A stretch of DNA of 64,000 nucleotides, taken from NCBI RefSeq assembly GCF_044324875.1, contig NZ_CP172185.1; one strand, given 5' to 3'. The position numbers were made by a program, and so were the translations under genes. Under the pieces are notes generated by a model. That model saw nothing but the letters and a program-made list of their open reading frames with translations, had not been told where the DNA came from and did not search any database. This document shows positions 1-12,009 of this stretch, piece by piece; positions within the stretch are counted from its first letter, which is position 1; every line of letters starts with the position of its first letter. This stretch comes from Escherichia coli. GTDB lineage: Bacteria > Pseudomonadota > Gammaproteobacteria > Enterobacterales > Enterobacteriaceae.

Positions 1-117
1 CAAAATGAAGGCCGGTGACCAGATACCACAGTTGAACGATAAACAGAAACCTGCTGATAAAACACCGTGGCGACATGACAAAACGCCAGAGCAAAAACCG
101 TAAGCGCATTATTCGTC

Positions 118-420
118 TTGTGGAACTCTGGCCTGAGTCATTCAACCGGGAAAAAAACAAAACCACTTAAAGTGGGGATACCTGACGACCTGATACAGGA
201 TATCGCCATCCGAGAACTGGCGTTTGGCGCTGGTACATTACATGCAGCAGTGGCGTCTTATGTGCAGTCTCCGCGCTATTACCGTGCGTTAATAGCAGGT
301 GGCGCCCGTTACAACCTGAACGGTCAGCCGTGCGGGGAAGTGACACCACAGGAACAGAAAGAGGCAGAGACCCGTTTAATGATGCTGAATGACCGACGAA
401 AAGACAGAAAACCTCGTTGA
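118..420 (+). CDS. hypothetical protein (island-borne)
   Basis: 100-aa ORF from the six-frame track; begins with TTG, no ATG near the 5' end; no family recognised; opposite strand to neighbouring island genes. Confidence 0.25.
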   Translation: MWNSGLSHSTGKKTKPLKVGIPDDLIQDIAIRELAFGAGTLHAAVASYVQSPRYYRALIAGGARYNLNGQPCGEVTPQEQKEAETRLMMLNDRRKDRKPR

Positions 421-437
421 CTGCACAACAGCGCTGT

Positions 438-1190
438 TCACTGAGCTGTAATCAATGTACAGCGCTGTACCGGGCGATGGGTAATACCGGTCACAACCGG
501 TAACCCCAGAGACAATGCAACTGTTTTTAACGCAATATACTGGCCGGATGTATCACCCCGGGCAGCCTGAAAACACCTTTCCACCCGGCATTGTCCGTCA
601 GCACTTATCACCCGCCATGTCTGTTGCAATAAATCCACCCGTTGCGAACATTCTTCATCAACCGTGGCACTGACCCGTGGATGGCAAATGCTCGTCTGGC
701 TGAGCAGCAACAGGCATCGCATTGTTGCTCCTCCATGTTGTTCCCGCAACCAGCGTAATACCACCGGTGGTGCTGGACTGGCCGTGTGATTACGTTCAGT
801 AATACGCTCGTGCACCTGTCGGTAAAAGGAAGTACAGAATGCATGAATCTGTTGTCCGTTGATGTTTCCTTCTGCCGAATGGAGTGTGAAGTGGACGGCC
901 AGCAGACGCGGCCAGTGATCCACCGCCTGCTGAATAAAACGCCGGATTTCCACCGGCTCTGAAAGTACGGTTTCGGTTATTTGCACGATTTGATCCCCTT
1001 GAATGTTGCTGAACCGGTGTCGGTACGCAGGAAAGCACGCCGAGACCGGTACGATGCCTGTTACAGCGAAGAACGAGGAATGACAGACGGGGGCAGCAGG
1101 TCGCCAGCACCAGGGACAGGGCTGATTTCCACAATACCAACGCTGGTATTTTGCACATTGCCAGCGTACCGGCATTACAACACGTTTCAT
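438..1190 (-). CDS. putative YfjJ/YagK-like (inovirus Gp2-type) island protein
   Basis: ORF 438..1232 trimmed to the ATG at 1190, which overlaps the alpA stop in an ATGA arrangement (possible translational coupling). Weak resemblance to the two paralogs at 1492-3152 (HFTLH..., ...CLLLLS). Family assignment is tentative. Confidence 0.4.
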   Translation of the reverse strand: MKRVVMPVRWQCAKYQRWYCGNQPCPWCWRPAAPVCHSSFFAVTGIVPVSACFPAYRHRFSNIQGDQIVQITETVLSEPVEIRRFIQQAVDHWPRLLAVHFTLHSAEGNINGQQIHAFCTSFYRQVHERITERNHTASPAPPVVLRWLREQHGGATMRCLLLLSQTSICHPRVSATVDEECSQRVDLLQQTWRVISADGQCRVERCFQAARGDTSGQYIALKTVALSLGLPVVTGITHRPVQRCTLITAQ

Positions 1191-1423
1191 GCGGCGACTC
1201 CCCGTGATGCTTCGATGCGCTGCTGCATCCACTGCTCCACTTCGCTTCTGTACCAGCGGCTGCTGCGGCCCAGTTTGATGGGTTTAGGGAAATGGCCTTC
1301 ACTGATCAGCTTGTAAAACCATTTGTCGGTCATACCAGTGAAGCTGGTGATGTAGTTCATGTCGATCAGGGGATCGTCGGCACGCAGCAATACGCTGTCG
1401 TGACCTGTCATTGAGGTCAACAT
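1187..1423 (-). CDS. alpA: AlpA-family prophage transcriptional regulator
   Basis: 78-aa protein with the C-terminal region FTGMTDKWFYKLISEGHFPKPIKLGRSSRWYRSEVEQWM, typical of AlpA/CP4-57 regulatory proteins; start may be an internal Met. Confidence 0.7.
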   Translation of the reverse strand: MLTSMTGHDSVLLRADDPLIDMNYITSFTGMTDKWFYKLISEGHFPKPIKLGRSSRWYRSEVEQWMQQRIEASRGVAA

Positions 1424-1491
1424 GGTCAGAATGTCCTCTGTGAGATTTATGAATGTTGGGCAAATGCGGGTGAATCTGCTGAGCTGAGCTT

Positions 1492-2064
1492 TCAGAGCTG
1501 GCCTGCTACGGGATACCAGGGATTACCGGCGAGGTAACGGGCTTCCGGATCGCGCACACCACGACGATCGCGGGCGAAATCACTGAACGCCCATATCAGC
1601 TCTTTGAGTCTCTCTTCGCAGTCCGGTGAACGGGGATCCAGCAGCACATCCCGGGTAATCTGCTTCTGGTACGGTGCCGCTTCACCCGGTGACGCGAAGC
1701 CCAGTACGTTGCTCCAGGCATCCAGAATCAGCCGATCCAGTTCAGGGCCGTCGAAATATTCCTCCCTGACGCACAGCACCACGTGGTATTCCGGTTTTTC
1801 AGGATGACGAGTCAGGAGCCAGCAGAGATCACGTCCGGGGGTTGCATTCATCAGCGCACTGACGGTTTCGATAAAGGCCATACCGAACCAGGTTTTTCTG
1901 TCGCTGAAGATGTTGCCATGTTCCCCCGGCAGACGAAGCAGGATCCGCCGTATTCGGGAGCAGGGCTGCTCACGCAGCGCACGCTCAAGGACACCGATAA
2001 CTTTGCTCTGATAAGATGGCCAGAAGGGCGCCATGCTATAGTCGAAATAAGGGATAGCATTCAT
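1492..2064 (-). CDS. YfjJ/YagK-family paralog, probably N-terminally degenerate
   Basis: ORF 1492..2094 (TTG start); first ATG at 2064 gives MNAIPYF..., alignable to MNQPIH... of the paralog at 2421..3152. The conserved leader element lies about 160 bp further upstream (2231-2261) with no in-frame ATG in between. Confidence 0.4.
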   Translation of the reverse strand: MNAIPYFDYSMAPFWPSYQSKVIGVLERALREQPCSRIRRILLRLPGEHGNIFSDRKTWFGMAFIETVSALMNATPGRDLCWLLTRHPEKPEYHVVLCVREEYFDGPELDRLILDAWSNVLGFASPGEAAPYQKQITRDVLLDPRSPDCEERLKELIWAFSDFARDRRGVRDPEARYLAGNPWYPVAGQL

Positions 2065-2230
2065 AAGATATGTTCCGTTATACGCAGCCCACAACGCGTC
2101 CTGCCCGTGGATGCGCTGACGTGTTATGGCTTGCGTATGGGGTTGATGGAATAAGTGAAAAACCGCGGCAGAACGGGAAGATCAGGTAACCGACAAGGGA
2201 CAGAACACCGGATGCAGGTTCAGAATGAAT

Positions 2231-2261
2231 GATCTCCGTTGACTTCGGTTCACATCATTAA
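2231..2261. repeat. conserved leader element, copy A (GATCTCCGTTGACTTCGGTTCACATCATTAA)
   Basis: Direct repeat of the element at 3160-3195; the shared core GATCTCCGTTGA...TTCACATCATTAA is visible in the sequence. Confidence 0.6.
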
Positions 2262-2420
2262 GCAGGACAGTAAGGTTTTACCGACGGAGTGTTTCCAGGA
2301 GCGAAAGCAGAGAAAAATACCGTTGCATGACTTCAGGACGACTTTTTCAGAAAACGAGCTAAGGGCGTCAGCCAACGTCCTGTAGCATAAGCTCAGGCAC
2401 CGGATGTCGTTTTACAGGGC

Positions 2421-3152
2421 TCACCTGCCATCCAGTAGACGCCCCGGCCCACGACTGCAACCATAATTACGTTGCCCGGAACCGTTATGCAACTTCGTTT
2501 CATATTTCACGAGATAACTGGCTCTGTTCCGGGCTTTCTGCATCGCTTCCACATCACCACGCTTGACCCAGAGCACAGCGGATTCACCCGGCTTTTTGTC
2601 TGAAGCCTTCCTGGTATCAGAACATCCACCCGACAAAGGCGTATCATCGGAAGAAGGGCGAGCATCAGATGATGTCGGTTTACGGAAAGGCGTCCGCCTG
2701 GAAAAATGAACCAGTCCATTACCCTGCCAGGGCTCAAGATGCAGAGCACTACACCATGCCAGCTTGATCAGTGTCGCCAGCGAAGAAGGAACGGTGAAAT
2801 CCCCTGGCGAGCACCAGGTATCTTTGTTGAGCAGCAATATCACGTGATAATGTTTCCTGCCTTTTTCCTTGCCAAACTCCCGGCACCAGAAATAACGCAG
2901 AGTGGTTGCACGCACACGCTTGTTGGCACGTCGTTTTTTCCGCTGGTAAGCCTGAATTTTGGCTTTCAGGGATGCAAAAAAACGAGAAATCACCGCTGAA
3001 TCCGGATCGGGATCCATGATGGTGACAGGCATATACTCAGGGAAACGTAAATCCACCCGGATTAACGAGACGGCACGGTGCTGCGCCAGGGCACTGTCGA
3101 GAAGGCTGTCAAAACGGGATAACCAGTAAGCATTATGTATTGGTTGATTCAT
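2421..3152 (-). CDS. YfjJ/YagK-family (inovirus Gp2-like) protein
   Basis: 243-aa protein with LIRVDLRFP and HYHVILLLN motifs as remembered for the YagK/YfjJ family of CP4-type islands; GGAG ribosome-binding site about 10 nt upstream of the ATG on the minus strand. Confidence 0.55.
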   Translation of the reverse strand: MNQPIHNAYWLSRFDSLLDSALAQHRAVSLIRVDLRFPEYMPVTIMDPDPDSAVISRFFASLKAKIQAYQRKKRRANKRVRATTLRYFWCREFGKEKGRKHYHVILLLNKDTWCSPGDFTVPSSLATLIKLAWCSALHLEPWQGNGLVHFSRRTPFRKPTSSDARPSSDDTPLSGGCSDTRKASDKKPGESAVLWVKRGDVEAMQKARNRASYLVKYETKLHNGSGQRNYGCSRGPGRLLDGR

Positions 3153-3159
3153 GATGAGA

Positions 3160-3195
3160 GATCTCCGTTGATTTGGATTGACTTCACATCATTAA
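3160..3195. repeat. conserved leader element, copy B (GATCTCCGTTGATTTGGATTGACTTCACATCATTAA)
   Basis: Immediately 5' of the 2421..3152 start codon on the minus strand (contains its GGAG ribosome-binding site); on the plus strand it contains TTGATT-17 bp-ATTAAT, a promoter-like arrangement. Confidence 0.6.
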
Positions 3196-4282
3196 TCACC
3201 GCAGTAAAACTTTACGGCGTCCTGTCATTAAGCAACACCAGTGGCTCCTGATTAGAACAGAATGAGTTTCCCACGAACAAAAAGACAAACCTACACGCAG
3301 GGTAAAAACACGCAACAACAGCATGAATGGATTTGAAAACAATATGGATGACGAAAAATGTCAAAAGTGAAACGGATCAACAGAACGTGCAAACAAAACG
3401 TCAGAAACGCAATCAGAGCACTTTCTGGCGCTGTGAATCAACAACAACACCAAAACCTACAGCTTAACCACATTACTCAATCACGAATGCGAATGACACG
3501 TTTAAAACCTGTTTACAGATAACGCCGTAACACGATCATCCCCATCACCATCAGAATCGATTTTCTCATCCCGAAAATGTTACGTTTCACTACGCACCAT
3601 AAAAACGATTAACCATCGATAACGTAAATCTCATCTGAATCAAAAAACCAAAACCAATCATCACACTTTCGCAATGCAAGAAGAAAAACCACATCATGAC
3701 GAAAACAATGACCTTACATGAAAAAGCAAAACGTCAGGAATCGTTAATGCCTCAATCTGATTGTTATCAAAACATCCAGAAAGTCGTTTAACAGAATCGT
3801 CGTAAGCACATCGAAAAGAACGTCAGATCACCTCAGGAAAGTTCGGGTTGATTTAGCGTAAAGATACTTTTCTCAGCTTAACGTCGAAACACAAACCAAA
3901 AACCACAAACAACCAAAGCTCAGGAAAGGTTAAACGTCACATCAGTAAAATCGAATAGCAGATTGATTGCTTAAACAGAAAGGTTTTACAGCAGCTTTAA
4001 ACTGATTTTAGCTAACGTAAAGATTTACTAAACTGGATGAGTTTCAGACAAAGCAATGTGTACAGCAATGCTTAATGAAAACACTTATAGGGCTGTTTAT
4101 GAAAACACGTGTATGTCTGGTAAAACACTTAGTAGAAAATACGTGTATAACACTTACTGAAATGCTTAGTAAAAATACTTAGTAAAATATGTAGACTGGC
4201 CCCCTGAATCTCCAGACAACCAGTATCACTTAAATAAGTGATAGTCTTAATACTAGTTTTTAGACTAGTCATTGGAGAACAG

Positions 4283-4648
4283 ATGATTGATGTCTTAGGG
4301 CCGGAGAAACGCAGACGGCGTACCACACAGGAAAAGATCGCAATTGTTCAGCAGAGCTTTGAACCGGGGATGACGGTCTCCCTCGTTGCCCGGCAACATG
4401 GTGTAGCAGCCAGCCAGTTATTTCTCTGGCGTAAGCAATACCAGGAAGGAAGTCTTACTGCTGTCGCCGCCGGAGAACAGGTTGTTCCTGCCTCTGAACT
4501 TGCTGCCGCCATGAAGCAGATTAAAGAACTCCAGCGCCTGCTCGGCAAGAAAACGATGGAAAATGAACTCCTCAAAGAAGCCGTTGAATATGGACGGGCA
4601 AAAAAGTGGATAGCGCACGCGCCCTTATTGCCCGGGGATGGGGAGTAA
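4283..4648 (+). CDS. insC: IS2 transposase OrfA (InsC)
   Basis: [56 protein letters not shown]... matches remembered IS2 InsC (121 aa). Confidence 0.95.
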
Positions 4649-5511
4649 GCTTAGTCAGCCGTTGTCTCCGGGTGTCGCGTGCGCAGTTGCACGTCATTCT
4701 CAGACGAACCGATGACTGGATGGATGGCCGCCGCAGTCGTCACACTGATGATACGGATGTGCTTCTCCGTATACACCATGTTATCGGAGAGCTGCCAACG
4801 TATGGTTATCGTCGGGTATGGGCGCTGCTTCGCAGACAGGCAGAACTTGATGGTATGCCTGCGATCAATGCCAAACGTGTTTACCGGATCATGCGCCAGA
4901 ATGCGCTGTTGCTTGAGCGAAAACCTGCTGTACCGCCATCGAAACGGGCACATACAGGCAGAGTGGCTGTGAAAGAAAGTAATCAGCGATGGTGCTCTGA
5001 CGGGTTCGAGTTCCGCTGTGATAACGGAGAAAAACTGCGAGTCACGTTCGCGCTGGACTGCTGTGACCGTGAGGCACTGCACTGGGCGGTCACTACGGGC
5101 GGCTTCAACAGTGAAACAGTACAGGACGTCATGCTGGGAGCGGTGGAACGCCGCTTCGGCAACGAGCTTCCGGCGTCTCCAGTAGAGTGGCTGACGGATA
5201 ATGGTTCATGCTACCGGGCTAATGAAACACGGCAGTTTGCCCGGATGTTGGGGCTTGAACCGAAGAGCACGGCGGTGCGGAGTCCGGAGAGTAACGGCAT
5301 AGCAGAGAGCTTCGTGAAAACGATAAAGCGTGACTACATCAGTGTCATGCCCAAACCAGACGGGTTAACGGCAGCAAAGAACCTTGCAGAGGCGTTCGAG
5401 CATTATAACGAATGGCATCCGCATAGTGCACTGGGTTATCGCTCGCCACGGGAATATCTACGGCAGCAAGCCAGTAATGGGTTAAGTGATAACAGGTGTC
5501 TGGAAATATAG
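4606..5511 (+). CDS. insD: IS2 transposase OrfB (InsD)
   Basis: 301-aa protein [34 protein letters not shown]... matches remembered IS2 InsD; overlaps insC as in IS2. Confidence 0.95.
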
Positions 5512-6227
5512 GGGCAAATCCAATATGTGTAGAATTATCTATTTAAAAAGATATGTATATAACACTTAATAAAAACATGTGTATATAGTATCATACCGAC
5601 ATTCTCAACATCTTCAGACTTCCATACATACTGGGTGTTGATTTCTCACTTTTACAGCCAGCATGGAGTTTTCTGTCCTAAAAACAGAGCAGATTTACTC
5701 TGGAATTATTTTTCTGCCCCCGTATTTCAGGCCCCAGAAAAGACAATCCGAAGCAAACCGTTTGTCAGCCTCCATATCATCTTTTACCCCCGGAAAGTGA
5801 TCGCGTTTTACAACCAGAATGACAGCCATACTGATTATGTCGTCTCCCGGCCCCCTTCACATATAACATGCATGTCTGTCATTGCTTACTGCTCCACATG
5901 ACCGGATTTCACATACAGGATGCACATTCAGTGTTTTTATCGCCACTATAACAGACAGATTACTGTCGTCTTTACTCTTCAGATTGTTAATCTGACCACA
6001 AGAACAGCCGAACGGCAAAACGCCCTCCACAAGGGGCACATGAACCATAGTTGATAGCATGTTTTTCCTAATCAAGGAATAGTTCAGGAATATTTTATTG
6101 CATTAATAACTGGCGAATAATCGTTCTGTGAACACAAAATGCTTTTATTTGTAAATTTTATTGCATTGCACTCGTTTTATTGATATGGGGTTTAATAACA
6201 GATAACCCGGAAAGAAGGAGAAAACAG

Positions 6228-7019
6228 ATGACATTACGGATTAACGATCAGGGGCGAGATAAACAGAATCAATTTTTATCGAAAAATGGAGAAAATCTGA
6301 ATTCGTTAAAATCGCGTCATGTGCAGGATAGGCATTTACCTGAATGGCTTAAGGATAAAGTTGCAGCATTCTGGTTTTGTCTGGTGATAAAGGATATGAA
6401 AGTGTCAGGGAGCAGTTACTATGAACTTACCATGCAACTTCCCACTTCTGAAGAATCTGTTTGCATCAGTAAGCTGTCATCCTCAACCCATGAGATTCGG
6501 CTGGAGATCATCAGGCGATGGATTGATAGTGTAGCACAGATAGAAACGGAAGCTTTTACTAAAAATCTCGTTGATGCCATCTATAAAAACTGGAAGGAAA
6601 TCGGGAACAAAAACCAGGCTACATGGCTTAAAAAAAATCCGGAACAACTCGAGTGGGCATGGAAATATATTAACATTCGTATTCCCGAGTCACATTTAAC
6701 CTGGTTTTGCCCCGTCAATAACGAAGAGAAACGCATTGCCATCTTAGCATTGCTTAAAATACTGTATCCCGGAGATATACCATGCCAGTACAACGACAAA
6801 GAGTTTCATGTCGGGATCTGCGCTGAAGAACATTTTTACAGAAGAATGCACGACGCTTTCAGAAAACAGTTTATCGACGGGAAAAAAGATAAACGGGTAC
6901 AAATTAACGTAAAGATATCACCGTCCGCAAAAAGCGCTCTGGACAGACTGACCAGAGCGAGGAAAACAACACAGCAGGCTATTCTGGAACAACTGATTCT
7001 GAACGGTAGACTGGATTAA
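6228..7019 (+). CDS. hypothetical protein with a possible C-terminal ribbon-helix-helix-like DNA-binding tail
   Basis: ORF 6180..7019 trimmed to the ATG at 6228, preceded by AAGGAG; AT-rich; C-terminus VQINVKISPSAKSALDRLTRARKTTQQAILEQLI resembles strand-helix RHH motifs (inference). No family recognised. Confidence 0.45.
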   Translation: MTLRINDQGRDKQNQFLSKNGENLNSLKSRHVQDRHLPEWLKDKVAAFWFCLVIKDMKVSGSSYYELTMQLPTSEESVCISKLSSSTHEIRLEIIRRWIDSVAQIETEAFTKNLVDAIYKNWKEIGNKNQATWLKKNPEQLEWAWKYINIRIPESHLTWFCPVNNEEKRIAILALLKILYPGDIPCQYNDKEFHVGICAEEHFYRRMHDAFRKQFIDGKKDKRVQINVKISPSAKSALDRLTRARKTTQQAILEQLILNGRLD

Positions 7020-8002
7020 CTTTCACTACTTCCACTCCTGGCAGTTTTCCTCTTTTTGTAGTGTCTCCCGGCTGCAGGCATCAGGTACTTTTCCGTCATT
7101 TCGTTGCAGAACTCTTCAATGTAGTTAATCAGCTTCTGGTGTGCTTTCACCTTTTCTTCCCCGGGGGACGCTTTCAGATAAATGTCCTCCTTTTCCACAA
7201 GTGTATTTATAAACTCTCCCGGACATCCCTGGTTATAAAGCAACGTGAAAAACAACACATTCCCCAGTCTCTCCAGTAACTGCGATTTAACCCTGTATTG
7301 TTGTTTGCTGAGGATTGATTGTTTTATAAAGCTTAGTCTTGTTAAAAGTTGTTCAAATCCCGGTTCCAGTTTAAAAACAGATTTTAATACCAGGGACTGA
7401 TACTCCTGATAAAAAAGTTCAAACGTCGGGGATGCAGACTGACGAACAGATTTGGCTACAACCCATGGACTAAATCCCATGATTGGGATTTCCTTCGCTC
7501 CCTCCAGCGCACTCAGAGGTAGTCCAGCAATCCATGCGTCCAGCTTAGCCGAATCAATATCCCCGCTCAAAACCTCATACAAACTGCCCGTGAACGGTTG
7601 AGTCGGTTTTTTTGTTGTTTTACCTTCTGATTGCCTGAATCCATCCACTTTTCTCCGGATATTACGCGGAATCAGCATAAAAGGCGGGACATTAAGTGAT
7701 AAACGTTTACCCGTCATACGATACCAGTGGCCCACCTCAACCTTAATCCGTGTATCTGGCCTTGTATCTGGCCTTGTATCTGGCCTTAGCTCAAGTGCTA
7801 TTATGTTAAGCAGGTACAGATAACGCACCGTATAACAGTCAAAATGTTTCTCCGGATCAAACGGCTCTGATCGTTCTCTGCACACAAGTCCGCTGCGCTT
7901 CAGTATTCGCTGGGTATCTTTCCAGGCCTTACTCTGAAGAATGGTGGTAACTCTGGCTTTATTAGCAATCTCACGCAGCGCATCACTTTGTTGTGCCGTC
8001 AT
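7016..8002 (-). CDS. hypothetical protein containing a tandem (RPDT)x3 repeat
   Basis: ORF 7016..8017 trimmed to the ATG at 8002, preceded by GGAGG; AT-rich; 12-bp unit repeated three times at 7752-7787; convergent with and overlapping the 3' end of 6228..7019 by 4 bp. Confidence 0.45.
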   Translation of the reverse strand: MTAQQSDALREIANKARVTTILQSKAWKDTQRILKRSGLVCRERSEPFDPEKHFDCYTVRYLYLLNIIALELRPDTRPDTRPDTRIKVEVGHWYRMTGKRLSLNVPPFMLIPRNIRRKVDGFRQSEGKTTKKPTQPFTGSLYEVLSGDIDSAKLDAWIAGLPLSALEGAKEIPIMGFSPWVVAKSVRQSASPTFELFYQEYQSLVLKSVFKLEPGFEQLLTRLSFIKQSILSKQQYRVKSQLLERLGNVLFFTLLYNQGCPGEFINTLVEKEDIYLKASPGEEKVKAHQKLINYIEEFCNEMTEKYLMPAAGRHYKKRKTARSGSSES

Positions 8003-8108
8003 CTCTTCCCTCCACACTTTGTCACTCCAGATTTTTTCACGTCCATATTACCTGAATGATAAACCGGATTAGTGTGATCCGGTTCAGCGAAATCAACAGG
8101 ATACCGGT

Positions 8109-8993
8109 ATGTCATTCAGCCATTCTTCCCTCTCTGCACAAGTGAAATCATATCTGACGTTTCTTCCTGAAGAAATTCGCCAGAAAATCCTTGAACATCT
8201 CCACGGTGTTATTCATTACGAGCCCGTGATTGGCATTATGGGTAAATCCGGCACAGGCAAAAGCAGCCTGTGTAATGCCATTTTTCAGTCCCATATCTGC
8301 GCCACGCATCCCCTGAACGGCTGCACCCGCCAGGCTCATCACCTCACCCTGCAGATCGGTGAACGCAGAATGACGCTGGTCGATCTGCCCGGCATTGGTG
8401 AGACACCGCAGCATGATCAGGAATACCGGGCACTTTATCATCAGTTGCTACCGGAACTGGATCTGATTATCTGGATCCTGCGGGCTGATGAACGTGCGTA
8501 TGCTGCCGATATTGCCATGCATCAGTTTTTACTGAATGAAGATGCCGATCCCTCGCGTTTTCTGTTTGTTCTCAGCCATGCCGATCGCGTGTTTCCTGCT
8601 GAAGAATGGAACGACACAGAAAAATGCCCGTCCCGTCAGCAGGAACTCTCACTGGCGACAGTAACAGCCCGGGTGGCCACCCTGTTCCCGTCATCATTTC
8701 CGGTACTCTCCGTTGCAGCGCCTGTCGGCTGGAATCTTCAGGCACTGGTGTCACTGATGATCCACGCACTGCCACCACAGGCAACCAGCGCGGTTTATTC
8801 GCATATCCGGAATGAAAAGCGCACTGCGCAGGATCAGCAACACGCACAGCAGGCTTTTGGTGACGCCATCGGCCAGAGTTTTGACGCTGCCATTGCCCGG
8901 TTCAGCTTTCCGGCCTGGATGCTGCAGCTTCTGCGCAAAGCCCGTGATCGCATTATCCGCCTGCTGATCACACTGTGGGATCGCCTGTTCTGA
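8109..8993 (+). CDS. YeeP/YkfA/YfjP-family GTPase (50S ribosome-binding GTPase domain)
   Basis: P-loop GIMGKSGTGKSSLCNA and DLPG motif; layout as remembered for YkfA/YfjP/YeeP of CP4 islands. Full length here (294 aa). Confidence 0.7.
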   Translation: MSFSHSSLSAQVKSYLTFLPEEIRQKILEHLHGVIHYEPVIGIMGKSGTGKSSLCNAIFQSHICATHPLNGCTRQAHHLTLQIGERRMTLVDLPGIGETPQHDQEYRALYHQLLPELDLIIWILRADERAYAADIAMHQFLLNEDADPSRFLFVLSHADRVFPAEEWNDTEKCPSRQQELSLATVTARVATLFPSSFPVLSVAAPVGWNLQALVSLMIHALPPQATSAVYSHIRNEKRTAQDQQHAQQAFGDAIGQSFDAAIARFSFPAWMLQLLRKARDRIIRLLITLWDRLF

Positions 8994-9102
8994 ATGTCCC
9001 CGCTTTTTGACCGGCCCCGGCGATAACCAGGAAACGCATTTCCGGTTGCGTCACCACAATGCTGAAGGGCTTCGGTAAACCCTCATTCATTTCATCCATC
9101 AG

Positions 9103-9133
9103 GCCGCGTCTTCTCCGTGAGACGCGGCTTTTT
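9103..9133 (+). terminator. putative intrinsic terminator downstream of the GTPase gene
   Basis: GCCGCGTC-loop-GACGCGGC stem followed by TTTTT. Confidence 0.55.
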
Positions 9134-9178
9134 CATTGATTACGTCATTCAGTCTTAACCACTGATAAGGAGCAAAGT

Positions 9179-9997
9179 ATGCGATTAGCCAGTCGTTTTG
9201 GTTATGCGAACCAGATACGCCGTGACCGTCCGCTGACCCGTGAAGAGCTGATGCACCATGTGCCCGGGATTTTCGGGGAAGATAAACACACCTCCCGGAG
9301 CCGGAACTATACATACATCCCCACCATCACCGTGCTGGAAAGCCTGCAGCGGGAAGGCTTTCAGCCATTCTTCGCCTGCCAGACCCGCGTACGTGACCCG
9401 GGTCGCCGGGGGTATACCAAACACATGCTGCGTCTGCGCCGTGACGGGGAGATAAACGGACAACATGTCCCTGAAATTATTCTGCTCAACTCTCATGACG
9501 GTACCTCCAGCTACCAGATGCTGCCGGGTTACTTCAGGTTCGTCTGCCAGAACGGATGCGTCTGCGGTCAGTCTCGGGGGGAAGTGCGTGTTCCGCACCG
9601 GGGAAATGTGGTGGACAGAGTCATTGAAGGGGCTTACGAGGTGGTGGGCGTGTTTGACCGGATAGAGGAGAAGCGTGATGCCATGCAGTCGCTGGTCCTG
9701 CCGCCACCGGCACGCCAGGCGCTGGCACAGGCGGCACTGACTTACCGTTATGGTGACGAACATCAGCCCGTCACCACCGCCGACATTCTGACACCACGAC
9801 GCCGGGAGGATTACGGTAAGGACCTGTGGAGTGCTTATCAGACCATCCAGGAGAATATGCTGAAAGGCGGGATTTCCGGTCGCAGTGCAAAAGGAAAACG
9901 TATCCATACCCGGGCCATTCACAGCATTGATACCGATATAAAACTCAACCGCGCATTGTGGGTGATGGCAGAAACGCTGCTGGAGAGCATGCGCTGA
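9179..9997 (+). CDS. DUF932-family protein (YfjQ/YafZ-like)
   Basis: 272-aa protein in the position and with the general sequence character of YafZ/YfjQ homologues that follow the GTPase in CP4-type islands. Confidence 0.6.
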   Translation: MRLASRFGYANQIRRDRPLTREELMHHVPGIFGEDKHTSRSRNYTYIPTITVLESLQREGFQPFFACQTRVRDPGRRGYTKHMLRLRRDGEINGQHVPEIILLNSHDGTSSYQMLPGYFRFVCQNGCVCGQSRGEVRVPHRGNVVDRVIEGAYEVVGVFDRIEEKRDAMQSLVLPPPARQALAQAALTYRYGDEHQPVTTADILTPRRREDYGKDLWSAYQTIQENMLKGGISGRSAKGKRIHTRAIHSIDTDIKLNRALWVMAETLLESMR

Positions 9998-10088
9998 TGC
10001 TGTTTCCCTGAAAGTGCAGCCCTGACTCACGTCTGTACCAGTCCCCAGGCATTCTTCCATTCATTTACTTTTTATAAGGAATCATCTC

Positions 10089-10574
10089 ATGACAACCTTT
10101 TCGCATAGCTCCACCACACCTTCTGTTTCCGCAACTACTGCATCAGGGAATAACCAGTCTCAACTGGTTGCCACTCCCGTCCCTGATGAACAGCGCATCA
10201 GCTTCTGGCCGCAGCACTTTGGCCTCATTCCACAGTGGGTGACCCTGGAGCCCCGTGTCTTCGGCTGGATGGACCGTCTGTGCGAAGACTACTGCGGTGG
10301 TATCTGGAATCTGTACACCCTGAACAACGGCGGGGCATTTATGGCCCCCGAACCGGATGATGATGATGACGAAACATGGGTACTGTTCAATGCCATGAAC
10401 GGTAACCGCGCTGAAATGAGCCCGGAAGCCGCCGGCATTGCCGCCTGTCTGATGACGTACAGTCATCACGCCTGCCGTACGGAGTGTTATGCCATGACGG
10501 TTCATTATTACCGTCTGCGGGATTACGCCCTGCAGCATCCGGAATGCAGCGCCATTATGCGCATCATTGACTGA
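10089..10574 (+). CDS. antirestriction protein (ArdB/KlcA-like; YfjX/YafX family)
   Basis: 161-aa acidic protein (DDDDDETW...), position between the DUF932 gene and the radC-like gene as in K-12 CP4 islands. Confidence 0.6.
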   Translation: MTTFSHSSTTPSVSATTASGNNQSQLVATPVPDEQRISFWPQHFGLIPQWVTLEPRVFGWMDRLCEDYCGGIWNLYTLNNGGAFMAPEPDDDDDETWVLFNAMNGNRAEMSPEAAGIAACLMTYSHHACRTECYAMTVHYYRLRDYALQHPECSAIMRIID

Positions 10575-10589
10575 AAGGGGGCCGGAACA

Positions 10590-11066
10590 ATGCAACAGAT
10601 TTCCTTTCTGCCCGGAGAAATGACAACCAGAGAGCGCAGCCTCATTCAGCGGGCCCTGAAAGCCCTGGACCGCCATCTTCATGAACCCGGCGTGGCCTTC
10701 ACCTCCACGCATGCGGCACGGGAATGGCTGATTCTGAACATGGCGGGACTGGAGCGTGAAGAATTCCGGGTGCTGTATCTGAACAACCAGAATCAGCTGA
10801 TTGCCGGTGAAACCCTCTTCACCGGCACCATCAACCGCACGGAAGTCCATCCCCGGGAAGTGATTAAACGCGCCCTGTACCACAATGCCGCTGCCGTGGT
10901 GCTGGCGCACAATCACCCGTCCGGTGAAGTCACACCCAGCAAGGCAGACCGCCTTATCACGGAACGTCTGGTACAGGCGCTGGCCCTGGTGGATATCCGG
11001 GTGCCGGACCATCTGATAGTCGGTGGCAGCCAGGTTTTCTCCTTTGCCGAACATGGTCTGCTTTAA
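10590..11066 (+). CDS. RadC-like JAB-domain protein (YeeS/YkfG/YfjY family)
   Basis: JAMM motif region HNHPSGEVTPSKADRLITERL typical of RadC-like proteins. Confidence 0.75.
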   Translation: MQQISFLPGEMTTRERSLIQRALKALDRHLHEPGVAFTSTHAAREWLILNMAGLEREEFRVLYLNNQNQLIAGETLFTGTINRTEVHPREVIKRALYHNAAAVVLAHNHPSGEVTPSKADRLITERLVQALALVDIRVPDHLIVGGSQVFSFAEHGLL

Positions 11067-11128
11067 CCCGTCACAACCACATCACACCTGTTTTCACTTT
11101 TATCTTCTGTCTTCAGAGGTATCCCATT

Positions 11129-11350
11129 ATGAAAATCATCACCCGTGGTGAAGCCATGCGTATTCACCAACAGCATCCTGCATCCCGTCTTTTTCCGTTC
11201 TGTACCGGCAAATACCGCTGGCACGGTGGCACTGAAGCGTATACCGGTCGTGAAGTGCAGGATATTCCCGGTGTGCTGGCCGTGTTTGCAGAACGCCGTA
11301 AGGACAGTTTTGGTCCGTATGTCCGGCTGATGAGCGTCACCCTGAACTGA
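11129..11350 (+). CDS. DUF987-family protein (YeeT/YkfH-like)
   Basis: 73-aa protein in the conserved position between the radC-like gene and the CbeA/CbtA module. Confidence 0.6.
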   Translation: MKIITRGEAMRIHQQHPASRLFPFCTGKYRWHGGTEAYTGREVQDIPGVLAVFAERRKDSFGPYVRLMSVTLN

Positions 11351-11364
11351 GTCAGGGCATTCTG

Positions 11365-12009
11365 ATGAGCAGAATTATCACCATCACAGTGTATACGCTG
11401 GATGAACTTTCCTGCCCGGCACGGGAAAAAGCCCGCGACGGGTACCGTCAGCATCATGCTGACAGCAGCTGGTATGAAAACGTGTATGAGGACTTCAGGG
11501 CGGTCTGTGACATTGTCGGGATTGCCCTCCGCCAGCGAGTTATCCGGCTCAGCAGCGGCAGGTTTATGGAAGAGCCGTGCATCTGGTTCAGCGGCTTCAG
11601 CAGCCAGGGGGACGGAGCCTGTTTTGACGGGCGCTGGCACTGGCAGCCGGCAACAGCCAGGAAAATCCGGGAATATGCCCCGCAGGACCGTGAGCTTCAT
11701 CGTATCGCGGATGCCCTGCAGGCGGTGCAGAAGCGTAACTTCCGGCAGCTTCAGGCTGAAATCCGCCACCGGGGACGCTACTGCCATCCGTACAGCATGG
11801 ATATCACCGTCACCCGGGACAGTCCGACTGGTCAGGCTATGACAGCCGATGCGGAAGCCGCTGTCAGCGAAGCCCTGCGCGACCTGGCCTTCTGGCTGTA
11901 CCGTCAACTGGAAAACGAGTACGACCAGATGACCTCAGACGCCGCTGTGGATGAGGCCATTCTCATCAATGCATACATCTTCACCGAAACCGGTCAGCGC
12001 ACCGGCTGA
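11365..12009 (+). CDS. hypothetical protein (214 aa) between DUF987 and cbeA
   Basis: Plus-strand ORF with mixed, protein-like composition. The competing minus-strand ORF 11164..11907 is Pro/Ala/Arg/Gly-rich, as expected of an antisense artefact in GC-rich DNA. No family recognised. Confidence 0.45.
   Translation: MSRIITITVYTLDELSCPAREKARDGYRQHHADSSWYENVYEDFRAVCDIVGIALRQRVIRLSSGRFMEEPCIWFSGFSSQGDGACFDGRWHWQPATARKIREYAPQDRELHRIADALQAVQKRNFRQLQAEIRHRGRYCHPYSMDITVTRDSPTGQAMTADAEAAVSEALRDLAFWLYRQLENEYDQMTSDAAVDEAILINAYIFTETGQRTG

Follow-up and report, generated by a model that had tools for sequence, protein, structure and literature searches.

A non-coding spacer with a conserved strand asymmetry accompanies a predicted HUH endonuclease gene in Escherichia coli islands

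Gene-free region upstream of a Gp2-like gene

We analyzed a 64,000-nucleotide (64-kb) stretch of the Escherichia coli contig NZ_CP172185.1 (hereafter, the window, to which all coordinates refer), in which positions 3204-4070 had been singled out as lacking open reading frames (ORFs) and showing a strong A+C strand skew, with the suggestion that they encode a long non-coding RNA or form a structured origin or regulatory region of an island (hereafter, the original prediction). The flanks of this stretch are those originally described, namely, a YagK/YfjJ-type gene, assigned to the 'inovirus Gp2 family' (hereafter, the Gp2-like gene), on one side, and the insertion sequence IS2 on the other (Table 1). 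Positions 3204-4070 represent a genuine non-coding element that is widespread, lacks annotation and actively maintains an unusual strand asymmetry; they are best explained as the middle of a ~1.2-kb cis-acting non-coding unit that travels with the island-borne Gp2-like gene, which encodes a predicted HUH endonuclease. The original interpretation is, as a whole, partly supported.

The base content of 3204-4070 is A 40.1%, C 22.5%, G 16.1% and T 21.2%, which corresponds to an AT skew of +0.31 and a GC skew of -0.17. The skew that drew attention to this stretch is real: compared with all 867-bp windows of the 64-kb sequence (mean A+C content, 50.8%; standard deviation, 2.7%), its A+C content of 62.6% lies at z = 4.3 and is matched or exceeded by 0.1% of these windows, with the peak of 63.1% in the 867-bp window starting at 3185. 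The claimed lack of ORFs holds as well, with no ORF of at least 60 aa within 3153-4192 and a longest stop-free run of 56 codons in any frame.

The first observation was incomplete because IS2 had split a larger gene-free region. In strain GF43, an IS2-free copy with 100% identical DNA has 1,739 bp between the start of the Gp2-like gene and the next gene, so IS2 is foreign to the native region, which in window coordinates comprises 3153-4191 and 5523-6227. This region consists of a nearly invariant proximal block, the skewed spacer, an array of direct repeats, a terminator-like hairpin and a right part that is replaced by unrelated sequence in some lineages (Table 1). The proximal block shows 84-99% column identity across eight lineages, compared to 73-90% identity of their spacers. 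Within it lie the ribosome-binding site (minus-strand GGAG) and, judging from the sequence, a near-palindrome of 18 bp, GCAGTAAAACTTTACGGC, at 3201-3218. As single-stranded DNA (ssDNA), this near-palindrome forms no significant hairpin (z = -0.1 and -0.5).

The repeat array lies ~870 bp away from the Gp2-like gene. Tandem Repeats Finder delineates a 13-bp unit in 5.2 copies at 4122-4187, and the direct repeats D2, D3, D6, D9 and D12 are found in the array. Its length varies from 130 to 235 bp among lineages through block indels that represent gain or loss of whole units. In a second lineage, strain WCHEC025985, IS2 is inserted into the array independently, in the opposite orientation, in another unit and with the target duplication ACTTA (L103 positions 1250-2590, compared to 4187-5527 in the window), which suggests that the array is hit by IS2 repeatedly.

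On the far side of the array, the hairpin at 5685-5702 folds, as ssDNA, no better than shuffled sequences. Among the E. coli matches listed, which are a sample, about half stop at query positions 1224-1228, equivalent to window position ~5712, that is, ~10 bp past the distal end of the hairpin. Lineages with a different right-hand neighbor retain the proximal block, spacer, array and hairpin, and the spacer and array always accompany the Gp2-like gene. Because the matches end at ~5712 and the lineages with other neighbors keep all four parts, the conserved unit consists of the Gp2-like gene and ~1.2 kb upstream of it. In the right part of the intergenic region, 5666-6076 is a long run with a plus-strand C/G ratio of at least 1.2; the longest such run in the window is 59248-59871.

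Table 1. Features of the intergenic region and of the genes on its two sides (window coordinates)
Feature	Coordinates	Strand	Remarks
YagK/YfjJ-type ('inovirus Gp2 family') gene	2421-3152	-	243 aa; annotation from identical DNA
Proximal block	3153-3232		nearly invariant; just upstream of the start codon of the Gp2-like gene
Promoter-like TTGATT-17-ATTAAT	3168-3196	+	TTGATT at 3168-3173, ATTAAT at 3191-3196; weak sigma-70 match
Skewed spacer	3233-4054		822 bp; plus strand A+C-rich, minus strand G+T-rich; non-coding
Repeat array, left part	4055-4191		A/T-rich direct repeats; units of ~12-13 bp alternating AAAAYACTTAGTA / AAAAYACGTGTAT
IS2	4192-5522	+	target duplication ATATG at 4187-4191 and 5523-5527; ends read from the sequence
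Repeat array, right part	5523-5590		ends in conserved GTATATAGTATCAT; -10-like TATAGT and TATCAT on the plus strand
Hairpin CAGAGCAGATTTACTCTG	5685-5702		followed by a T-run on the minus strand; terminator-like
Right part of the intergenic region	5703-6227		C>G skew, no A>T skew; unrelated sequence instead in some lineages
Gene for 263-aa protein	6228-7019	+	far side of the intergenic region; weak ribbon-helix-helix-like C-terminus

The spacer conserves length and composition but not sequence

Relatives of the spacer (3233-4054) were detected, at a conserved position, in 1870 of 5426 complete E. coli genomes. In total, there are 2861 copies, with a maximum of six in one genome, and only two of the copies are not chromosomal. 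The identities of the relatives are mostly between 60% and 90%, and at least 80% of the spacer is covered in 1350 genomes.

Across these relatives, the spacer conserves length and composition rather than sequence. In 17 of the 18 lineages compared, the composition is A 0.40, C 0.21-0.23, G 0.15-0.165 and T 0.21-0.23, the outlier being lineage L102 (A 0.386, C 0.200, T 0.262), and the A+C fraction stays at 0.59-0.63 in all 18 lineages, with pairwise identities of 76-100%. Measured from the start of the Gp2-like gene, a conserved anchor bordering the array lies 811-921 bp away in 17 of the 18 lineages; in the remaining one, this interval is 655 bp. Spacer identity between lineages (0.80-0.95) is, on average, below that of the 4-fold degenerate sites of the adjacent gene (0.83-0.99), and the pattern is a mosaic one that indicates recombination. 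In strain WP4-W18-ESBL-09 (lineage L009), ~0.9 kb encoding a 176-aa hypothetical ORF is inserted within the spacer (~3330-4240 in that locus, at about window position 3324), so the spacer tolerates insertion of cargo.

The direction of change was determined for 366 substitutions by parsimony on block-wise neighbor-joining trees, with a simulation control; an earlier polarization by minor allele (149 changes) was underpowered and was replaced by this procedure. There were 153 changes from A or C to G or T and 141 in the reverse direction; equal flux is not rejected (p = 0.52), and the expectation under strand symmetry, that 63% of the changes lower the A+C content, is rejected (p = 1e-4). On the plus strand, the per-site frequency of T>C (0.286) is greater than that of A>G (0.169, p = 0.009), and G>A (0.565) is more frequent than C>T (0.383, p = 0.025). 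When strand-symmetric evolution was simulated 100 times on the same tree, no run attained the flux balance seen in the data or both rate ratios. Because the flux is balanced and symmetric evolution is rejected, the skew is stationary and actively maintained, rather than a fading relic. Read on the minus strand, the excess changes are C>T and A>G, that is, the deamination-type pattern of a strand frequently exposed as ssDNA.

The sign of the skew is that of the sense strand of the Gp2-like gene, in which the 4-fold degenerate sites are 65% G+T in the sense orientation, above the value for other nearby genes. The trend does not continue further along the operon, where the A+C fraction at 4-fold degenerate sites is 0.36 in the alpA gene and 0.53 in the last gene. 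A region-wide mutational skew was rejected given that these sites are not consistently skewed in the neighboring genes.

No hidden gene, structured RNA or degenerate repeat

All tests for a gene were negative. Six-frame translation of the intact 1,739-bp region yielded no match to PHROGs even at E <= 1, and the six concatenated frames retrieved nothing at E <= 1e-3 from 5.8 billion protein clusters. Across seven lineages, 66 of the 74 indels (89%) are not multiples of three, as opposed to eight that are; the phase counts of substitutions are flat in 15 of 16 sliding windows, and the variable sites show no codon phase. PGAP leaves the region blank, save for occasional 46-82-aa 'hypothetical' ORFs in some genomes, which speak for a decayed coding sequence or a series of very small genes. 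These ORFs differ among lineages, however, and, together with the empty searches, the frame-breaking indels and the missing codon periodicity, this makes a coding origin extremely improbable. The degraded gene was accordingly rejected, and the non-coding nature of the stretch, as originally described, is borne out. Of the findings named in advance as counting against the original prediction, neither a lack of conservation in related islands nor a gene remnant recognizable in translated searches was observed.

The 'structured' element of the original prediction found no such backing. The 801-nt plus-strand RNA has a predicted folding energy of -134 kcal/mol (z = +0.11 against shuffled sequences), and the corresponding minus-strand RNA one of -192 kcal/mol (z = +1.34), so that neither strand folds better than shuffles. 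No conserved RNA structure was detected with RNAalifold in 12 of the 18 aligned lineages (near-duplicates were dropped), with energies of -2 to -14 kcal/mol in 120-nt windows, and the only notable element was the small near-palindrome at 3201-3218. A search with Rfam 15 over positions 1-12000, on both strands, gave no match in the region; the sole hit, outside the region, was sub-threshold (PhotoRC-I, 19.9 bits against a gathering score of 45). Folded as ssDNA, the distal hairpin, the proximal block and the sequence flanking the array likewise resemble shuffles (z = -0.1 to -0.9). A structured RNA and a hairpin-rich ssDNA origin were rejected, as there is no signal of folding or covariation.

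An origin of the spacer from tandem or degenerate repeats was also rejected, given that Tandem Repeats Finder detects the 13-bp array only. Autocorrelation peaks are weak, and the one at lag 25 (z ~4) stems from the array. Two words are enriched in the spacer, AAAAC (17 occurrences compared to 8.6 expected) and AACGTC (5 compared to 0.6 expected). Phasing of A-tracts, as in curved DNA, shows no clear peak at 10-11 bp.

Promoters and the direction of transcription

The promoter-like element TTGATT-17-ATTAAT, originally proposed to point into the region, is present as written; it is a weak site, however, and is not conserved across lineages. Each hexamer has four of six matches; the -10 hexamer lacks A at its second position, for which reason a consensus scan did not report the site, and it is ATTCAT in the group of relatives that includes MS7163, UPEC132 and 98889. 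In a position-weight scan, the site scores 4.6 bits, with better-scoring sites in the same 300 bp, and no good sigma-70 site was found near the start of the Gp2-like gene on either strand. The only sigma-70-like sites common to several lineages (3-6 of 8) flank the array on both strands, namely, near 4075 and at 4005-4022 on the minus strand and near 5590 on both strands. No RfaH ops element was found in or near the region, and the spacer holds a single candidate intrinsic terminator, which is weak and lacks conservation.

In 78-nt windows over 3400-3700, the plus-strand C/G ratio is 2.0-3.2, with the inverse, C-poor composition on the minus strand. The plus strand thus has the composition of a Rho-utilization (rut) site, that is, C-rich, G-poor and unstructured RNA of at least ~80 nt. 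Should the spacer be transcribed at all, its asymmetric substitutions suggest an RNA with the sequence of the minus strand, which is also the sense strand of the Gp2-like gene, rather than that of the plus strand of the original prediction.

Neighboring genes

The protein encoded by the Gp2-like gene matches the Pfam families YagK_YfjJ_C (3e-35) and REP_ORF2-G2P (1.3e-8), and contains the HUH motif HYHVILLLNKD and the Tyr motif SYLVKYETK. H101 and H103 do not vary among 29 diverse relatives, which were selected from 591 representative clusters, and at least 90% of these relatives retain Y213, K216 and K220. The Foldseek result is weak by itself (E >= 0.01). Judging from the motifs and their conservation, this protein is predicted to be an endonuclease of the HUH superfamily. 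Residues ~154-195, between the HUH and Tyr motifs, form a low-complexity insertion rich in Ser, Asp and Pro that is predicted to be disordered (pLDDT < 50); members of the family are ~200-225 aa long. Three genes follow downstream on the same strand, an AlpA-family gene between two hypothetical ones. Converging on this operon is a gene with a ProQ/FinO domain (NCBIfam ProQ, 5.7e-11; FinO, 1.9e-10) at 1-420 on the plus strand, which is cut by the edge of the window and is annotated as frameshifted in the identical GF43 locus.

The 263-aa protein encoded on the far side of the intergenic region matches the ribbon-helix-helix (RHH) family RHH_1 of Pfam weakly (E = 0.065), shows 25% identity (7e-24) to a protein of a related island that PGAP names 'replication regulatory RepB family protein', and has a weak match to the model of IncFII RepA2-type repressors; it is a candidate for binding the repeat array. 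A convergent 333-aa ORF (7016-8017, minus strand) that overlaps this gene has no match in Pfam, NCBIfam or PHROG, and in other lineages the pair is swapped for an unrelated 407-aa ORF. Beyond these lie genes for a GTPase and then for DUF932, antirestriction, RadC and CbeA/CbtA proteins. The idea of a regulatory region, contained in the original prediction alongside the unsupported 'structured' part, fits this layout, which looks like the control region of an island module, with the HUH gene on one side, and the 13-bp array and the gene with the RHH-like C-terminus on the other.

Distribution beyond Escherichia coli chromosomes

Only four plasmids carry the spacer. Among the three P4-type cryptic prophages of E. 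coli K-12 that were examined, CP4-6, CP4-44 and CP4-57, none has a counterpart. None of the 50,697 phage records matches the region, and a conserved 40-mer of the spacer is not present in IMG/VR; on these grounds, a phage or satellite origin was rejected. The only match to the Gp2-like protein in the phage database, at 41% identity, is in OR844780.1, an 'UNVERIFIED' 4.5-kb record of Escherichia phage ECO111 5-P with a low coverage of 3.7x, which probably represents host-island DNA rather than a phage.

The skewed spacer is specific to an E. coli-type sublineage; outside E. coli, it is common only to two metagenome bins with E. coli-like copies. The 63 distant Gp2-family genes from other genera have upstream gaps with a median length of 478 bp, a mean G+T fraction of 0.506 and a TA skew of 0.00. 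In Providencia, Proteus, Vibrio, Yersinia and others, Gp2/YfjJ genes typically have an AT-rich, ORF-free gap of ~430-480 bp upstream. A long upstream non-coding region without skew may be a general trait of the Gp2/YfjJ family. In the literature on yfjJ, inovirus Gp2, YagK and HUH proteins, island gene sets, and P4-like or AlpA intergenic regions, we found nothing on the spacer and no earlier description of the element, although it belongs to a familiar kind, the regulatory or leader regions of mobile-element modules.

Possible roles of the spacer

We tentatively favor, as a possibility well short of even, the reading that 3233-4054 forms a long leader or spacer, transcribed on the minus strand but not translated, that separates a control hub of 13-bp repeats from the operon of the HUH and AlpA genes. 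The repeat array would act as a promoter/operator hub, and leftward (minus-strand) transcription of the spacer would yield an unstructured, untranslated leader of the Gp2-like/AlpA operon, a G+U-rich, C-poor RNA. The skew would be kept by the excess of C>T and A>G on the minus strand, as if this strand were often single-stranded, for example, as the non-template strand, and the skew may be reinforced by selection, given that Rho acts poorly on untranslated RNA that contains little C.

In favor of this reading are the constant linkage of spacer and array to the Gp2-like gene, the non-coding and unstructured nature of the spacer, its steady length and composition amid sequence drift, the maintained skew, whose sign is that of the Gp2-like sense strand, and the location of the shared sigma-70-like sites around the array rather than near the start of the Gp2-like gene. 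Several points weigh against this leader. Transcription-coupled asymmetry in E. coli genes is far smaller than that of the spacer. The C>G skew runs on, with the same sign, to the right of the array, where simple divergent transcription from the array predicts otherwise. The putative promoters at the array have low scores of 6.6-6.9 bits and occur in only 5-6 of 8 lineages, one lineage tolerates a ~200-bp deletion in the spacer, and a skewed leader common to the entire Gp2 family was rejected, as the 63 distant loci are unskewed. Mutation bias and selection are inseparable because the asymmetry of transversions between the A+C and G+T classes is weaker and non-significant. Transcription, its direction, the role of the array and the link to Rho are all parts of this reading that we infer.

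An alternative to the leader is that the spacer is inert filler between modules, with the skew a by-product of local strand-biased mutation, retained by chance or to avoid harm to neighboring control sites. This is rather unlikely, in our estimate, even though the spacer evolves about as fast as, or faster than, the synonymous sites of the neighboring gene, accumulates indels frequently, tolerates the 0.9-kb insertion and the 200-bp deletion as well as IS2 insertions in the adjoining array, and contains enriched words, AAAAC and AACGTC, that are no better conserved than their surroundings. Useless DNA gets deleted from bacterial genomes, but here ~850 bp persists in 17 of 18 lineages, which diverge by as much as 24%, and at least 1350 genomes retain it, with the composition held in a very narrow band; furthermore, a purely mutational skew of this magnitude would still call for an unusual local process, which is itself informative. 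Another alternative, which we consider unlikely, is an origin region for the HUH endonuclease, in which the array would serve as iterons with a nick site nearby, and the G+T-rich strand would be displaced as ssDNA during rolling-circle or strand-displacement synthesis on the (excised) island, leaving a deamination footprint like that of the vertebrate mitochondrial heavy strand. The C>T and A>G excess on the G+T-rich strand is the classical pattern of ssDNA deamination, the adjacent gene, as expected of a rolling-circle origin, is assigned to the HUH endonucleases by motifs and fold, and the same intergenic region holds a direct-repeat array of variable copy number with a putative binding partner, the neighbor protein with a C-terminus weakly resembling those of RHH and plasmid copy-control proteins. 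A nick-site hairpin, by contrast, was not found, with no significant ssDNA hairpin in the proximal block, beside the array or distally; the skew is limited to ~0.9 kb and is not continued at the 4-fold degenerate sites beyond the Gp2-like gene, whereas displacement of an island of more than 60 kb should yield a shallow gradient; the distant family members have no skewed upstream region; and we know of no replication or nicking activity of YagK/YfjJ proteins.

The long non-coding RNA of the original prediction corresponds to the possibility that the plus strand yields an A/C-rich, G-poor, unstructured and untranslated RNA that runs in the direction opposite to the Gp2-like gene and could serve as an insulator that loads Rho, as an antisense RNA or as an Hfq-binding RNA; a rut-like insulator would stop read-through into the right arm. 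C-rich, G-poor composition and weak structure are properties of Rho-utilization sites, and the spacer combines its plus-strand C/G ratio with weak predicted structure; AAN/ARN-type tracts, such as AACAACAACACC, are seen in the sequence, and the same island arm carries the ProQ/FinO-domain gene. Nevertheless, this possibility is quite doubtful: the sole plus-strand promoter candidate is weak and mutated in several lineages, the region matches no Rfam family, near-neutral evolution argues against a base-pairing antisense RNA or a specific small RNA, and the asymmetry, if mutational, marks the minus strand as the exposed, non-template one. We attach a similarly low probability to the proposition that the Gp2-sense strand of the 0.85-kb segment is chronically single-stranded in vivo and that the skew is the mutational footprint of this state, which could be caused by nicking by the HUH endonuclease with strand displacement beside the array, by a persistent R-loop or by very heavy transcription of the leader.

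Comparison with known systems

Filamentous phages (Ff, Pf) similarly have a non-coding region directly upstream of gene II, of the G2P/Rep (HUH) lineage, in which the T-rich strand is the sense strand of the gene. The phage region, however, is ~0.5 kb long and dense with origin and packaging hairpins, whereas the region analyzed here is ~0.85 kb long, shows no hairpin signal on either strand and belongs to a chromosomal island without similarity to phage records. Rolling-circle plasmids, such as pMV158 with its RHH repressor CopG and HUH initiator RepB, share with this locus the combination of an HUH protein, a protein with an RHH or RHH-like C-terminus and an array of direct repeats within a single intergenic region. 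In these plasmids, the repeats and the nick hairpin lie within ~100 bp and near the genes, but here the array is separated from the HUH gene by an 850-bp spacer, no nick hairpin is evident and the RHH assignment is weak; moreover, we know of no replication function for the Gp2-like module.

With rut regions and leaders subject to Rho, the spacer has in common that it is long, untranslated and unstructured, with a C/G ratio of 2-3 on the plus strand. Known rut regions are ~80-150 nt long, whereas here the skew extends over ~850 nt, is mainly A>T, and transcription of the spacer is putative. Vertebrate mitochondrial DNA displays the same kind of keto/amino skew, similar in size and with C>T and A>G likewise overrepresented on the G+T-rich strand; there, it is genome-wide and tracks the time spent single-stranded during replication, as opposed to 0.85 kb in an otherwise ordinary E. 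coli chromosome. Finally, the long proposed leader and the AlpA-family gene in the operon of the HUH gene are reminiscent of the leaders of Q-type and AlpA-type antiterminators; here, however, the spacer contains no firm terminator, binding elements for AlpA were not identified, and AlpA is encoded downstream instead of being provided in trans.

Implications

YagK/YfjJ proteins and the P4-type islands that carry them, including many pathogenicity islands, are common in E. coli, and, to our knowledge, their core biology is still unexplained. An extreme asymmetry of the mitochondrial type that persists amid sequence drift is hard to explain without a strand-specific process acting at this site. 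The candidate cis site, the repeat array and the predicted direction of transcription provide handles on the regulation, replication or silencing of these islands.

If the spacer is only a leader or a spacer, it would still be a useful annotation for ~2,800 unannotated loci and a case of conservation of composition rather than sequence; this mode of conservation, together with the tie to an uncharacterized HUH endonuclease, is what makes the element of interest. If the skew is, indeed, the footprint of a chronically single-stranded segment, a widespread island module of E. coli would have biochemical activity within the chromosome, and a first function, along with a cis site, could be assigned to the YagK/YfjJ family.

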